DNA of 64,000 bases. Origin: a phage. This document shows, one piece after another, positions 31,894 through 43,477 of this stretch; the stretch's first letter is position 1; every line of letters begins with the position of its first letter. The notes beneath the pieces were generated by a model. It searched no databases. It was not told the origin of the DNA and saw only the letters and a list, made by a program, of their open reading frames with translations. Position numbers and translations under genes: made by a program. Location: the sequence record PZ386980.1. One strand, given 5' to 3'.

Positions 31894-32624
31894 TCACCTT
31901 TATAGTCTTTTTTCACAATATGAGTTTCGCCAGTATTCCACCAATGATCAACCAAGTAAAAATGACGAGAATATACATGAAGACTTCCGACATTCCATAT
32001 AATAGAACCTGCTTTATACTGACGAGATGAATCGCCGGCATTCAAATCAGATACTAATTTATCTAATACGTATTTTTGCCATGCATAATCATTACGGAAT
32101 CCGAAGACCACGTCATTTGAGCGCATGCTTACTACTGCATTGACTTTCTTATCACGAATCAGGTACTGTACTGTATTAGTACACATGAAATCTGACATAC
32201 CATCTTTATTGTAGTCAAATTGCATGGATGGACGAGTATAAATCATGATACCACGTCGAGAATCAGGATTTTGACCAAGTTCAGCTAAACACATATCATA
32301 CTGGGCATAGTTATCTTCTGACCAAATAGCCCAACCATAATTCGAGTTAATTTCGCCTTTAGAAGATGCTACCTGCTGCCAAATCTTTGGTGTTTCACCT
32401 GGAATATCTTTAACAAACAAGCTCTTAGATTTATACCATTCAAGTTCACGTTGAATGTATTCATCATTAAGAGCGCCAAAAATAAACGGTTCATCTGCTA
32501 CAAATGATGCGCCAATAATTTCAATAGTTTTAACACCAGTTTTATCAACTACGAAATCTTTTTCTTTTAATGCAAGCCCCAAATGAAGACGGATTTCTTC
32601 AACTGTCATAGAGTCACTAATCAT
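31884..32624 (-). CDS. 42: dCMP hydroxymethylase
   Basis: 246 aa, MISDSMTVEEIRLHLGLALKEKDFVVDKTGVKTIEIIGASF...; matches T4 gp42. Confidence 0.9.
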   Translation of the reverse strand: MISDSMTVEEIRLHLGLALKEKDFVVDKTGVKTIEIIGASFVADEPFIFGALNDEYIQRELEWYKSKSLFVKDIPGETPKIWQQVASSKGEINSNYGWAIWSEDNYAQYDMCLAELGQNPDSRRGIMIYTRPSMQFDYNKDGMSDFMCTNTVQYLIRDKKVNAVVSMRSNDVVFGFRNDYAWQKYVLDKLVSDLNAGDSSRQYKAGSIIWNVGSLHVYSRHFYLVDHWWNTGETHIVKKDYKGEWK

Positions 32625-38825: not shown

Positions 38826-39512
38826 TTAAAAATCGTGGGTAGAATCAGCTTCAAGAGCTACTACATAATTCGCGTGTTCACCTTCAAATTTAGCAGCGCC
38901 TTGTTTACCTTTTGCCCAGAGCAGAAGTTTATAATTTCCTGGTTGCATTTTCATATTTGCCATATTGATAATGAAATTAAATGTATTTTCACCATCATAA
39001 TCACCAAGAGTCAAAGAATATTTAACACGGGTAAGAGCAGAATCTTCTACTTTATTAAAACCATTAATTACGATTTTACCTTCTTTTACCGTGATAGCAA
39101 TTGTATCAATTTGCAGACCACGAGATACACGCAACAGTTGTTGAAGGTCTTCAGCTTTAATTTCAGTAACAACAGATGCTACCGGGAATGGAATTGGTTT
39201 ATTAGGAGCAACTACTGTACTCGGATCGGCTGCTGGCCAAAAAATTGTTGAGCGGGCATCAGCAATTTTAATATTTCCATCTTCTGACTGGGAAATTTCT
39301 GCATCATCATTAACTAGAGACAGAATACCGAGAAAACCGTTCAAATCGTAAATTGCTACATCAAAATCAATAACGTCAGAAATATTTGCTTCCGCGTAAG
39401 TTGTACCATTAACTGCGCGAGTCATAATAAATTGACCGGATTTAAGCATAATGCCAGAGTTAATAGTAGCGAAATTTTTAAGCAGAGCAGTAGTATCTTT
39501 AGACAGTTTCAT
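38826..39512 (-). CDS. 45: sliding clamp
   Basis: 228 aa, MKLSKDTTALLKNFATINSGIMLKSGQFIMTRAVNG...; matches T4 gp45. Confidence 0.92.
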   Translation of the reverse strand: MKLSKDTTALLKNFATINSGIMLKSGQFIMTRAVNGTTYAEANISDVIDFDVAIYDLNGFLGILSLVNDDAEISQSEDGNIKIADARSTIFWPAADPSTVVAPNKPIPFPVASVVTEIKAEDLQQLLRVSRGLQIDTIAITVKEGKIVINGFNKVEDSALTRVKYSLTLGDYDGENTFNFIINMANMKMQPGNYKLLLWAKGKQGAAKFEGEHANYVVALEADSTHDF

Positions 39513-39539
39513 GTAATTTCCTTCAATTCAAATGAGATT

Positions 39540-39570
39540 TAATTTTATAACTAATTTAATAAAGCAATTA
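39540..39570 (-). promoter_or_regulatory. candidate MotA-dependent middle promoter for gene 45
   Basis: minus strand ATTGCTTTA - 10 nt - TATAAA. Confidence 0.35.
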
Positions 39571-39957
39571 ACGATTAAAATCAGTTGCGATTGTTTCGGC
39601 AACAATTTGTGCAGCAACAATTAGACGTTCATCTGCATTACCGCAATAATCATCTTCAAGGCGTTCACCACATGAAGTCATAATAAATTTAGCACCGGCG
39701 TTTAGGGATTCTGTAGTATGTTTGCGCATTAGTTCAATCCATTTATTACTTACTTCACGATCGATAGCTTCATAATACGCATGACGAGCAGGTGCAGATT
39801 TAATTTTGTTCTGAATAACTTCCATTGCGTTATCAGAAAGAGACAAAACCCATGCGCGACGAATTTTATTTTGGTTTTGTGGATTTGATTCAGAACGCAC
39901 GTGTTTTGGCTGAATATCTTTTACATCAACAGTATAATTCACAGTAATTTTAGTCAT
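39568..39957 (-). CDS. rpbA: RpbA RNA-polymerase-binding protein
   Basis: 129 aa, directly upstream of gene 45 as in T4. Confidence 0.75.
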
Positions 39958-39966
39958 AATACACCT

Positions 39967-40158
39967 TTAGTCATAATAATCAGTAACAGTCCAAGCTTCA
40001 TTTCTATTGGACATTATTTTTGTATATTCTGCTTTAAATGCATTCCTAAGCATAGATTCAGTAACTATATGCTCTTCATTAGAAAAATTATTTCTCAGAA
40101 TATATCGTTTTATTTCAGGAAAAGTTAATAAATGCTGTCCAGTTGAATATTCTGCCAC
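39967..40158 (-). CDS. hypothetical protein (63 aa; 45.2 position)
   Basis: ORF track. Confidence 0.5.
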   Translation of the reverse strand: MAEYSTGQHLLTFPEIKRYILRNNFSNEEHIVTESMLRNAFKAEYTKIMSNRNEAWTVTDYYD

Positions 40159-40168
40159 AGTTCCTCCG

Positions 40169-40176
40169 TATAAATA
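40169..40176 (+). promoter_or_regulatory. candidate late promoter (TATAAATA) for the HNH gene
   Basis: exact TATAAATA on the plus strand 34 nt upstream of ATG 40210; AAAAGGA SD in between. Confidence 0.45.
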
Positions 40177-40209
40177 TGTTTATCACTCGCTGTATCAAAA
40201 GGATATGTT

Positions 40210-40923
40210 ATGAATTATAAACTAATTTATGAAAAGTTAATCTCTAATGCTAAATCTCGAAAACTTGATTGCTATACTGAATCTCATCACATTATACCAC
40301 GCTGTTTAAATGGCAGCGATGATGCTTCAAACTTAGTAGATTTAACACCGGAAGAGCACTATGTAGCTCATCAACTTTTAGTAAAAATTTATCCTTCTGA
40401 ACCAAAATTAATCTATGCTGCTAACATGATGACAGTTTCCACGAAATACGCTAAACGTAACAATAAAACTTTCGGTTGGATTCGTCGTAAACTCTGGGAA
40501 ATAGAAAAGAATAAAGAATTCTCCCAGGAGACACGAAAGAAAATGTCTGATGCAGTAGCTAATAAAGCAAGACTAACTTGTCCACATTGCGGTAAGTCCG
40601 GATTAAGCGGGAATATGAATCGATGGCATTTTGATAACTGCCCGAATCACCCTAATCCTAAAGTTAGACCACCGATGTCTAAAGAACACAGAAATAATAT
40701 CTCAAACGGGCTTAAAGCAATCATTCTTGAAGAAACATCCTGCGAATTCTGCGGAATGATAGGCAAGAAATGCGTTATTGCAGCGCATAGAAATTTCTGC
40801 AAGAAAAATCCAAATGGACGCAAGAAAACTGAAAAGACTGGTACTTGCGTCCATTGTGGTAAAGTTACCACTTTCGGAAATTTATCAAGGTGGCATAATG
40901 ATAACTGTAAGCACAAACATTAA
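40210..40923 (+). CDS. free-standing HNH homing endonuclease (237 aa), plus strand
   Basis: HNH motif ESHHIIPRCLNGSDDASNLVDLTPEEHYVAH; two C-terminal repeats CPHCGK...NMNRWHFDNC / CVHCGK...NLSRWHNDNC. Confidence 0.75.
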   Translation: MNYKLIYEKLISNAKSRKLDCYTESHHIIPRCLNGSDDASNLVDLTPEEHYVAHQLLVKIYPSEPKLIYAANMMTVSTKYAKRNNKTFGWIRRKLWEIEKNKEFSQETRKKMSDAVANKARLTCPHCGKSGLSGNMNRWHFDNCPNHPNPKVRPPMSKEHRNNISNGLKAIILEETSCEFCGMIGKKCVIAAHRNFCKKNPNGRKKTEKTGTCVHCGKVTTFGNLSRWHNDNCKHKH

Positions 40924-42608
40924 TTAATAGTGGCAACACTAAATCTACCAACTTTTTCCATTTTAATATGCTGTCCATAATCCTGCGGATCATGGTCTTT
41001 ATGCGAAATTATGAAGAAGTTGGTATCCTTCAAACCATCTAAAATTTTAGCTACATTTTTAATGCCTTCAGCATCAAATGCACCGTCATACACTTCATCA
41101 AGAAATAAACAACTTATTTTAACACCTGAAACTTTTTCAGCAATATCACGCCAAGTAAATAAAAGAGCAATATCAATTCGCGCTTTTTCACCTTGACTGA
41201 ATGAAGCATAACTAAAATCTTCACGACCACGGGATTTAATTGTCTCATTAAATTCTTCATCTAATGTAAACACATAATCCGCTTCCATTATTTTAAGATA
41301 ATGGTTAATCTGCTTATTAAATAATGGAATGTACTTTTTAATAATAGCACCTTTAATACCAGAATCTTTGAGCATATCAGTCAAAATTCCTCGGTGGTAT
41401 TTTTCCATTACTAAATTAGTTTTTGTCTTAACAATTTTATCAAGTTCTTCTTGAAGCAGTGCTATTTCATCAGCATGGTCAATAAACTCAGAAGATGCTT
41501 TTTCTATAGCTGCTTTAACTTTTTTAGCTTTATCTACCGTCGTGATTAGAGATTGCTTTTTATTGCGAATATCATTTGCCAACGACTGCTGAGTTTTAAT
41601 ATTATCTCGGTATTCATCAACAAGAACTTTTAAATTATCACGGTGTGTTGAAAGCTGTTCAAACGAATGCGTACATTCAGAAACTTTATCTTTAATTTTA
41701 GAAACAACTTTATCACCGGAACTTAATTGTGACAAACAGGTTGGACATAATCCACCTTCGTGATACATATTAATGACTTTATTATACGAGTCAATTTTTG
41801 ATTTAATTAAAACTGCTTCTTGACCGATTTTATTAAACGCATCAGTCGGATCTTCATCCAAAACAATATTAACTAATCTTTCATTAGCTTCTTCTATTTC
41901 CGATTTTAGCGTTCTAGCTTCTTTTGCCAAATCATCATACATATTTTGCAGACGAGTAAGATTGTCACCCGTTAATTTTTTCTGGCGTTCAACGTTATCA
42001 TTATATATTTTAATTTGTTGGATAATACTATCTTTTTTAACATCAAGCACTTGGTTCTGCGAATTTAATTCACGTATTAGTGCTTTATTAAGCTTATCCA
42101 TTTCAGCTAATGTTCCTACCTCAAGCAGGTCTTCCACAAGCTTTCTTCGTGCAGGGGTCGACAAACCCATGAAAGGGGTATACCCTGCTGTACCAAGGAC
42201 AACAATCTGCTTGAAACTGGCATATGACATTCCGATAAGCTGTTCAAATTCTGCTTGGAAATCTTTACTGCTGGCAGATTCATTAAGACGTGTACCGTTA
42301 ACGGTGATTTCGAAAACGTTTGGTTTTTGTCCTCTTTTGATATAGTACTTTTTCTCATCATATTCCATCCACAGTTCAACTAAAAGTTCTTTCTTATTTG
42401 TGCTGTTTATTAATTGACCTTTCTTTACATCACGAAATGGCTTACCAAAAAGCCCAAATGTGATGGCTTCTAACATAGTAGACTTACCACCGCCATTTCG
42501 TCCAGTAATAAGAGTTTTTTGAACCTTATCTAATTGAATGTCAACTCCATTTTGACCAACTGACATTATATTTTTATATTTTACTCTATTAAGTTTAAAT
42601 GATTTCAT
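40920..42608 (-). CDS. 46: recombination nuclease ATPase subunit (Rad50/SbcC-like)
   Basis: 562 aa; Walker A GRNGGGKST, long coiled coil, CPTC hook, C-terminal ABC signature; matches T4 gp46. Confidence 0.9.
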   Translation of the reverse strand: MKSFKLNRVKYKNIMSVGQNGVDIQLDKVQKTLITGRNGGGKSTMLEAITFGLFGKPFRDVKKGQLINSTNKKELLVELWMEYDEKKYYIKRGQKPNVFEITVNGTRLNESASSKDFQAEFEQLIGMSYASFKQIVVLGTAGYTPFMGLSTPARRKLVEDLLEVGTLAEMDKLNKALIRELNSQNQVLDVKKDSIIQQIKIYNDNVERQKKLTGDNLTRLQNMYDDLAKEARTLKSEIEEANERLVNIVLDEDPTDAFNKIGQEAVLIKSKIDSYNKVINMYHEGGLCPTCLSQLSSGDKVVSKIKDKVSECTHSFEQLSTHRDNLKVLVDEYRDNIKTQQSLANDIRNKKQSLITTVDKAKKVKAAIEKASSEFIDHADEIALLQEELDKIVKTKTNLVMEKYHRGILTDMLKDSGIKGAIIKKYIPLFNKQINHYLKIMEADYVFTLDEEFNETIKSRGREDFSYASFSQGEKARIDIALLFTWRDIAEKVSGVKISCLFLDEVYDGAFDAEGIKNVAKILDGLKDTNFFIISHKDHDPQDYGQHIKMEKVGRFSVATIN

Positions 42609-42623
42609 TTTGTATCCAATTGT

Positions 42624-42944
42624 TCACAATGAAGAAAATTCTTTAACTAAAGCCTGTAATGAAGCCTCTATTGGATATCCATTCTTAACTAACATTTTCC
42701 TAAACATTACATGTTTAGGACGATTATATGATATCCACAATTCATACAATTTATCTTTATTATCCCAATGATAGCCTTTTCGTCGAGATGCTATATGAGC
42801 TTTTCTAATCTCCGGATTTTTCCAACTAGCAGCTACTGAATTTGATATAGCTATTTTATATTCAGGTTTTGATAAAGCAGCACGAACAGCCTTTTGGTGT
42901 TTAATTTTATTTTCTTCGTTATTAAACCATTCCCTTGAAGCCAT
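42624..42944 (-). CDS. NUMOD-like DNA-binding repeat module, out of frame with the upstream HNH ORF
   Basis: 106 aa with repeated K/R-rich motifs (KHQKAVRAALSKPEYK, RKAHIASRRKG); overlaps 42851-43477 by 94 nt in another frame. Confidence 0.4.
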   Translation of the reverse strand: MASREWFNNEENKIKHQKAVRAALSKPEYKIAISNSVAASWKNPEIRKAHIASRRKGYHWDNKDKLYELWISYNRPKHVMFRKMLVKNGYPIEASLQALVKEFSSL

Positions 42945-43477
42945 TGAAATTTTTGTTTTGTTTTAAAATTATTTAATCTTTCTTTATTATCTTTCCTATT
43001 TTTTGCTACTGAAAAATATTTTAATGCCCTTTCTCTAGCAGCATTTCTATTTTGCGGATTTGAATAATACTGTTGAAGCCTTTTTGATATTGTGTCACTT
43101 ACATCTTGTTTTATAAAACTATATTCAGCAGCTATTAAATCAACTTCGGCTAAAGATAAATTTTTATATGTTTTTCCTGACATCATTCTATTTAAAGCAT
43201 TTAGCATTTTTCCATTTTTACCTTTTGCTAATAAGAAGTGTGCTTTAAAATGATTAAAATGACTTAAATTAACTAAATTCCATGTAGATTTTAAATATTC
43301 AGGAAATATTGATTTAGGAAGCACGTGGTGTGCTTCCGTTTTACCTGGAGTTTTAACAGTTGAATTCACAGAAATAAAATTAATGTAAGACTTGGCGTCT
43401 TCTTCACTCAACGCTAATTTTTCAACTAATTCCTTTATTAAAAATTCATCATTAATGTCAAGTTTAAAATTCTTCAC
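42851..43477 (-). CDS. HNH homing endonuclease, catalytic part (208 aa)
   Basis: HNH motif EAHHVLPKSIF...NLVNLSHFNHFKAHFLL; track start is GTG. Confidence 0.6.
   Translation of the reverse strand: MKNFKLDINDEFLIKELVEKLALSEEDAKSYINFISVNSTVKTPGKTEAHHVLPKSIFPEYLKSTWNLVNLSHFNHFKAHFLLAKGKNGKMLNALNRMMSGKTYKNLSLAEVDLIAAEYSFIKQDVSDTISKRLQQYYSNPQNRNAARERALKYFSVAKNRKDNKERLNNFKTKQKFQWLQGNGLITKKIKLNTKRLFVLLYQNLNIK
43443..43477. repeat. 35-bp direct repeat, copy 1 (encodes the KNFKLDINDEF start of the HNH gene)
   Basis: aattcatcattaatgtcaagtttaaaattcttcac; 29/35 identical to 43646-43680. Confidence 0.6.

Follow-up and report, generated by a model that had tools for sequence, protein, structure and literature searches.

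The homing endonuclease gene (HEG) located between genes 45.2 and 46 in the phage DNA analysed in this work (a stretch of 64,000 nucleotides, "the window") was predicted to encode a free-standing HNH homing endonuclease of the Mob class, similar to MobE of phage T4 (estimated probability around 0.8). The gene is an ordinary, previously annotated selfish gene of T4-like phages, sporadic among relatives, and its annotation as a putative Mob-like homing endonuclease goes back to the deposition of the RB32 and RB51 genomes: the GenBank/RefSeq label of RB51ORF057 and RB32ORF054w is [quoted passage not shown], and dozens of further phage records label the gene as a putative homing endonuclease. A 2010 survey listed for RB51 one HNH gene as mob-like and another as "other HNH" (PMC2993671), and no publication naming or treating the gene at the 45.2/46 position was found in the literature. 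Three aspects of modest value were added here: a base-precise description of the inserted cassette, including the rewritten start of 45.2, the rewritten end of gene 46 and the loss of a MotA-type promoter match; evidence that HEGs have landed repeatedly at the 45.2/46 junction, in three genera; and the recognition that this lineage had swapped the NUMOD3 repeats typical of MobE for two extra CCHC zinc fingers.

Positions 39500-41700 of the window were 100% identical to phages RB51 and RB68 (Tequatrovirus), the ATG of the HEG at 40210 corresponding to position 31961 of the RB51 record. Position 1 of the window would thus lie ahead of the first base of the linear RB51 and RB68 records, so that the window stems from a record with another permutation or from another phage identical at this locus. 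The features of the locus are summarized in Table 1. The first-pass annotation, made from the sequence alone, had described a 237-aa reading frame opposite to all flanking genes, and this was confirmed: the HEG lay in the plus strand, and its seven neighbours (45, rpbA, 45.2, 46, 46.1, 46.2 and 47) were all in the minus strand, with the Pfam models Gp45_2 and RpbA confirming the identity of those on the left-hand side. The convergent overlap of stop codons that it had reported was also correct: the HEG stop (40921-40923, plus strand) and the gene 46 stop (40920-40922, minus strand) shared the palindrome TTAA at 40920-40923.

Table 1. Features of the 45.2-46 region and of the neighbouring HEG (positions in the window; residues refer to the 237-aa HEG protein).
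Feature	Position	Strand	Basis and remarks
Gene 45.2	39967-40158	-	Left neighbour of the HEG
Whole HEG cassette, 785 bp	40153-40937	+	Alignment to T4 and 7 other HEG-less Tequatrovirus loci
Cassette-borne 45.2 start	40153-40167	-	GTG 40156-40158, extra Ala codon 40153-40155, SD GGAGGAA 40161-40167
T4-type late promoter motif (candidate), TATAAATA	40169-40176	+	Exact match, 33 nt upstream of the HEG ATG
5' leader	40177-40209	+	SD AAGGA 40199-40203; conserved TATC...CTGTATCAAA block
HEG ORF	40210-40923	+	237 aa and stop; RB32ORF054w / RB51ORF057
N-terminal Mob-type HNH nuclease domain (predicted), residues 1-100	40210-40509	+	mobB identity, invariant columns, profile matches
HNH motif, residues ~21-54, ESHHIIPRCLNGSDDASNLVDLTPEEHYVAH	40270-40371	+	E24, H26, H27, N41, H50 and H54 invariant in 79 homologues (alignment columns)
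NUMOD3-like helix, residues 103-117, SQETRKKMSDAV	40516-40560	+	Aligns with NUMOD3 repeats of homologues; predicted helix 106-117
Putative zinc module 1, residues 124-144, CPHCGKSGLSGNMNRWHFDNC	40579-40641	+	Invariant ligands; predicted beta-beta-alpha
Putative zinc module 2, residues 178-197, CEFCGMIGKKCVIAAHRNFC, divergent	40741-40800	+	Ligands C178, C181, H193 and C197, invariant in 25 lineage members; predicted beta-beta-alpha
Putative zinc module 3, residues 213-233, CVHCGKVTTFGNLSRWHNDNC, family-wide C-terminal module	40846-40908	+	Ligands C213, C216, H229 and C233, invariant in 79 homologues
Cassette-borne gene 46 end	40920-40937	-	...RFSV-ATIN and stop; stop within the TTAA shared with the HEG stop
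Gene 46	40920-42608	-	Right neighbour of the HEG
HEG-linked divergent gene 46 3' end	40938-41115	-	19-28% divergent from T4/T2; uniform among HEG+ loci
Mob-like HNH HEG, split	42624-43477	-	phrog_655, E 3.9e-36; between genes 46 and 46.1

The HNH identity proposed in the first-pass annotation was borne out by family assignment, by similarity to Mob proteins and by a family profile. The protein fell into the PHROGs family phrog_655, "homing endonuclease" (E 2e-68), to which T4 MobE is also assigned in record OZ209023. The comparison with T4 Mob proteins, which had been suggested as a check, gave an end-to-end alignment with MobE (33% identity, E 3e-33) and 69% identity over 94 aa between residues 1-94 and a mobB-annotated protein. 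An absence of the HNH domain from profile searches had been named as the result that would speak against the proposal; a profile built from 79 homologues recovered the HNH motifs of McrA (E 8.9e-5), Cas8-HNH, a group II intron maturase and IscB, the HNH region of the NCBIfam IscB model being matched with an E of 3.7e-5. The residues of the motif followed the H..N..H order of the superfamily (His general base, structural Asn and metal-ligand His/Asn), and the protein combined the two features of the T4 Mob class, a Mob-type HNH domain at the N-terminus and, at the C-terminus, a region with a zinc-finger-type module. With the single protein as query, the Pfam HNH model (PF01844) reached 17.0 bits (E 0.0068), under its gathering cut-off of 21.4, and none of HNH_3, HNH_4 and HNH_5 passed the threshold; the curated Pfam HNH models are insensitive to the Mob subtype, close homologues behaving alike. 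The sequence search of the PDB with the single protein gave no match below E 0.1. AlphaFold modelled the protein with a pLDDT of 91.8 for the full length and 87.0 for the C-terminal half, and structure searches with these models gave no significant match, the top ranks being occupied only by zinc-finger arrays and HNH domains.

The C-terminal half was described in the first-pass annotation as carrying two repeats resembling tandem zinc-binding, DNA-recognition modules. Both repeats were real (modules 1 and 3), but their number was wrong, as a third module lies between them (module 2). Modules 1 and 3 were similar beyond chance (local BLOSUM62 score of 90, reached by 0 of 2000 shuffles); in the same shuffle test the sequence similarity of module 2 to the other two was not significant. 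Module 2 had the ligand spacing C-x2-C...H-x3-C of modules 1 and 3, and all 12 ligands of the three modules were invariant in 25 members of the lineage, with identities down to 30%. A strand-strand-helix fold was predicted for each of them (pLDDT around 90), with the ligands placed on the predicted hairpin and helix as in Cys2-His-Cys beta-beta-alpha fingers, and a predicted helix preceded each of modules 1 and 2. The invariant ligands and predicted folds support the idea of zinc-binding modules, and we infer from sequence and model that these CCHC modules bind zinc and, putatively, recognise DNA. No Pfam zinc model scored above threshold on the protein. The top Foldseek matches were zinc-finger arrays (CTCF, TRAF6, Cep104), none at E <= 0.001; one module superposed on the Rad18 UBZ CCHC finger with 1.1 A over 31 residues, in a Foldseek match that was not significant.

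The family to which the protein belongs has a common layout: the HNH domain lies N-terminally, NUMOD3 repeats occupy a middle part that varies, and the protein ends in an invariant C-x2-C-x12-H-x3-C module. In the lineage at the 45.2/46 site the middle repeats have given way to two additional CCHC modules (124-144 and 178-197). One NUMOD3-like helix, which aligned with the first repeat of homologues, precedes them; many homologues with NUMOD3 repeats pass the Pfam NUMOD3 model (PF07460), and the HEG protein stayed under its threshold (E 0.13, 12.6 bits vs. a cut-off of 20.4). C-terminal zinc fingers joined to an N-terminal HNH are already described features of the Mob class (PMC10448857). Module 3 aligned with the C-terminus of T4 MobE (CPHCGKKVNKGNALRWHYDKC), and T4 MobE, an Aeromonas phage 25 GIY-YIG endonuclease and segD of Vibrio phage nt-1 all had modules of type 1, indicating that this CCHC type has also been shuffled onto GIY-YIG nucleases. 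It is conceivable, though rather unlikely, that the protein is in effect a natural "zinc-finger nuclease", in which the C-terminal half would be a modular zinc-finger array that reads DNA for an HNH nickase. The corollary of such an array, that CCHC modules and NUMOD3 helices are interchangeable and that their number and order set the length and specificity of the target, would be just as speculative. If it were true, and if each finger read a few base pairs predictably, the lineage would offer a compact scaffold for programmable nickases.

Among characterized proteins, T4 MobE was the closest in architecture (N-terminal HNH, then a NUMOD3-type helix, and C-terminal C-x2-C-x12-H-x3-C) and in genomic setting, as it is also free-standing, located between conserved genes (nrdA and nrdB) and sporadic in relatives. 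It differs in having NUMOD3-like repeats in the middle of the protein, where the HEG protein has its two extra zinc modules, and in its insertion site and presumed target. Moreover, mobE has no promoter, is co-oriented with its neighbours and is limited by an internal terminator (PMC2790892), whereas the HEG is antisense and has its own late-promoter motif. T4 MobB and mobB-annotated proteins, to which the RB32 and RB51 records refer ("similar to mobB"), were similar at residues 1-94 only: past residue 94 there was no similarity, and the C-terminal halves were unrelated, as expected because the C-terminal domains of Mob proteins are specific to each protein (PMC2790892). I-HmuI, an HNH homing endonuclease whose structure has been characterised, has by its published description (PMC2790892) an extended layout of two domains, in the order HNH domain, linker and DNA-binding domain proposed for the HEG protein, but the resemblance is architectural only, since no sequence or structure match was obtained. 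I-TevI is likewise a nuclease of modular, beads-on-a-string build that includes a zinc finger, and a late promoter drives its expression (PMC2988022); it differs in belonging to the GIY-YIG family, in being intron-encoded and in having a single Cys4 finger that acts as a distance ruler and not as a repeated module.

The insertion between 45.2 and 46, and the lack of a gene there in T4, had been proposed in the first-pass annotation, together with a comparison of the junction in endonuclease-free relatives. Alignment with HEG-less loci confirmed both. T4, T2 and most relatives had no gene at the junction, only a 45.2-46 spacer of 55 bp. Near-perfect homology to these loci ended at 40152 and resumed around 40938, and the 785-bp cassette took the place of 70 bp of T4 (the start codon of 45.2, the spacer of 55 bp, and gene 46 from its third-last codon through the stop), a difference in length of 715 bp (BLAST spans of 2201 vs. 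1486). The cassette thus carries its own versions of both gene ends. The N-terminus of gp45.2 was M/V-A-E-Y in HEG+ phages and M-E-Y in HEG-less phages, both in Tequatrovirus and in Mosigvirus. The gp46 tails before the stop codon were RFTVMV in T4 and T2, RFSVATIN in RB51 and RFSLAKIS in RB32; in Mosigvirus they were RFTVMTVS in the HEG-less RB69 and RFTVMKAS in HEG+ phages. These two rewritten junctions were the only differences that consistently separated HEG+ from HEG-less phages in the two genera.

The spacer lost in HEG+ phages contained in T4 (L002, 3657-3711) an exact match to a MotA-box middle promoter in the minus strand (TGCTTTA-N12-TATAAT), which overlapped an inverted repeat (AGAGATTAT/ATAATCTCT); the arrangement in RB69 was analogous. 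As this match is lost, HEG+ and HEG-less phages may transcribe 45.2-rpbA-45 differently. Several antisense promoter-like motifs were observed in the cassettes: a MotA-type TGCTTTA-N12-TATTAT inside the HEG ORF (40719-40694, minus strand), conserved only among 97%-identical copies; an extended -10 match (TGGTATAAT) also inside the ORF (~40290-40298, minus strand), forced by the conserved HHIIP codons; and, in Mosigvirus cassettes, a TGCTTTA-N12-TATAAT overlapping the 45.2 start codon. Judging from the sequence, these may be replacement promoters for 45.2, rpbA and 45, or chance matches. A compensating 45.2 promoter inside the HEG was not accepted, one of the internal matches being restricted to near-copies and the other codon-forced.

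The exact late-type promoter motif and the SD upstream of the ORF were found where the first-pass annotation had placed them, and the motif constitutes a candidate promoter conserved across genera. TATAAATA was depleted in the 64-kb window (2 copies vs. 10.9 +/- 3.1 expected from dinucleotide shuffles), which makes one copy correctly placed upstream of an ORF meaningful. It was kept at the corresponding position in 7 of 7 Tequatrovirus HEG+ loci, in Mosigvirus ESCO47 and in locus L004, and was replaced by CTAAATAG, at the same position, in Lw1-like cassettes. The late-promoter consensus lies at -13 to -6, with relaxed variants reported in other T4-like phages (PMC1524935), and the CTAAATAG sequence matches such variants. 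Scans of the region for sigma-70 promoters and terminators gave sigma-70 matches at or below chance and 0 terminators.

The leader also contained a non-coding block, TATC...N...CTGTATCAAA(.)AAGGA, conserved across genera (the window leader and those of L003, L004 and L005), although the synonymous sites of the ORF were saturated across the same genera. This conservation, and the precedent of I-TevI, which represses itself at its own promoter (PMC2988022), would suit a protein acting primarily as a sequence-specific DNA-binding regulator (e.g. an autorepressor) through its zinc-finger array, with the nuclease in a secondary role. Such a function was considered highly improbable: the nuclease motif was fully conserved, the leader had no similarity to nearby HEG-less sequence, and nothing ties the protein to the block. 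Other leader functions were also rejected. An SD-sequestering hairpin as in other T4 HEGs was not supported by RNAalifold (0 pairs on 6 orthologous leaders), nor was a stable fold (single-sequence -7 kcal/mol, z = -0.31), and an operator/homing-site pair as in I-TevI was discarded after finding no match to any leader 14-mer (<=2 mismatches) in nearby HEG-less DNA.

The distribution of the gene was that of a free-standing HEG, placed between conserved genes and present sporadically at the same site in close relatives. Counts were made in the phage GenBank collection, as a gp45.2 search of IMG/VR gave 6 loci. The gene was present in 60 of the 600 phage records matching a 2.2-kb RB51 query (it was missing from T4, T2, RB6 and most others), in 14 records with a Mosigvirus query, and in 24 of 59 with an Lw1-type (Pseudotevenvirus-like) query. 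Homologues at this exact position in all relatives, the finding named beforehand as contrary to the proposal, were therefore not observed; the gene was sporadic in three genera, among otherwise near-identical phages. In each of four sampled lineages, orthologues were found at this junction and were likewise antisense to their neighbours: Tequatrovirus, Mosigvirus (58% amino acid identity), L004 (whose protein matches Yersinia phage MHG19; 63%) and the Lw1 type (44%; annotated "MobE-like"). RB16 carried at this junction a different endonuclease, "RB16 2" (L106, 828-1403; 191 aa), which combines HNH_3 and AP2 and is co-oriented with its neighbours, opposite to the HEG; the presence of this unrelated HEG makes the 45.2/46 junction a recurrent landing site for unrelated HEGs. 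With so many natural HEG+/HEG-less pairs whose flanks are around 99% identical, the locus would lend itself to the mapping of a Mob target.

The ORF is under purifying selection: dN/dS was 0.03-0.13 among Tequatrovirus copies, whose differences were mainly synonymous. Selection of this strength might be taken as a sign of domestication, in which homing has ended and the nuclease is kept for a benefit to the phage (exclusion of competitor markers or another DNA target) or for the gene ends supplied by its cassette. It would fit that site and orientation are shared even by lineages with gp46 only 44% identical, and that a simple deletion could be costly, given that the cassette supplies the 45.2 start with its SD and the gene 46 terminus and that the MotA-type match is lost; promoters embedded in HEGs are considered to favour their retention (reviewed in PMC2988022). 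Domestication is nevertheless unlikely, as sporadic presence among near-identical genomes of three genera fits a mobile element, active now or until recently, and not a fixed host function, and marker exclusion and homing are one and the same biochemical act.

The two flanks of the cassette differed in their similarity to HEG-less phages. On the 45.2 side, HEG+ and HEG-less sequences were around 99% identical right up to the junction. Gene 45.2 and the rest of gene 46 were 97.5-99% identical, and identity exceeded 97% again past ~41200. Between these, the tract at 40938-41115 was 81% identical to T4, 72% to T2 and around 67% to Mosigvirus and L004, and none of these sampled sequences was its donor. 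Judging from the alignments, this tract was probably co-converted, hitch-hiking with the HEG from a donor outside the sample. The link between tract and HEG was not exclusive: HEG-less phages were themselves polymorphic for a block of this kind, and in Mosigvirus the HEG-less RB69 and HX01 had the same gene 46 3' end as HEG+ phages, so that the divergent tract of Tequatrovirus is not readable as an immunity determinant. Placing the target from HEG-linked polymorphisms was likewise rejected, because the pattern was not replicated in Mosigvirus. Several haplotypes, 15-28% divergent, were found over the last ~200-270 bp of gene 46 (40938-41200; in Mosigvirus, L103-L105), in genes otherwise 97-99% identical and in HEG-less phages included; the region encodes the Walker B and H-loop of the Rad50-like ATPase. 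The sequence pattern indicates that the 3' end of gene 46 is a local recombination mosaic.

A homing mechanism for the cassette can be inferred by analogy with MobE, which in vivo nicks T2 nrdB strand-specifically and in an HNH-dependent manner, and whose flanks are co-converted when it is inherited (PMC2790892); its activity in vitro could not be shown (PMC2790892). Late in infection, RNA polymerase with gp55 would transcribe the HEG from TATAAATA, and the protein would bind DNA through its C-terminal array, made up of three Cys2-His-Cys beta-beta-alpha fingers and two NUMOD3-like helices. When a HEG-less relative infects the same cell, its allele would then be nicked or cut by the N-terminal HNH domain in or around the 45.2/46 junction. 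T4-type recombination repair, templated by the HEG+ genome, would transfer the cassette to the recipient together with part of the flanking DNA. The rewriting of both junction sequences would protect the HEG+ genome itself.

As a last alternative, the gene could be a relic of a formerly mobile HEG, its product no longer able to cleave DNA and the gene itself carried along by hitch-hiking. Defunct HEGs are numerous in T4-like genomes, I-TevIII of T4 being one of them (PMC2790892), and the HEG between 46 and 46.1 in the window is itself frameshifted. For the gene at 45.2/46, however, this is very unlikely: the ORF was intact in all copies examined, with the low dN/dS given above, and all residues of the HNH motif and the 12 zinc ligands were conserved. 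The relic, domesticated and regulator alternatives were all considered less likely than a Mob-class homing endonuclease, since the gene is sporadic in its distribution, has intact motifs and is under purifying selection.

The HEG between 46 and 46.1 was split into ORFs of 208 and 106 aa by a 1-nt deletion (A6 to A5) near 42954, which could reflect a pseudogene, a sequencing error in a homopolymer, or slippage. The RB51 RefSeq table had no CDS in the corresponding stretch, and T4 had no gene there. In T2 the homologue was broken by an independent 2-nt deletion, and the copy in the window was 99.9% identical to an intact 284-aa gene of Citrobacter phage PhiZZ23.
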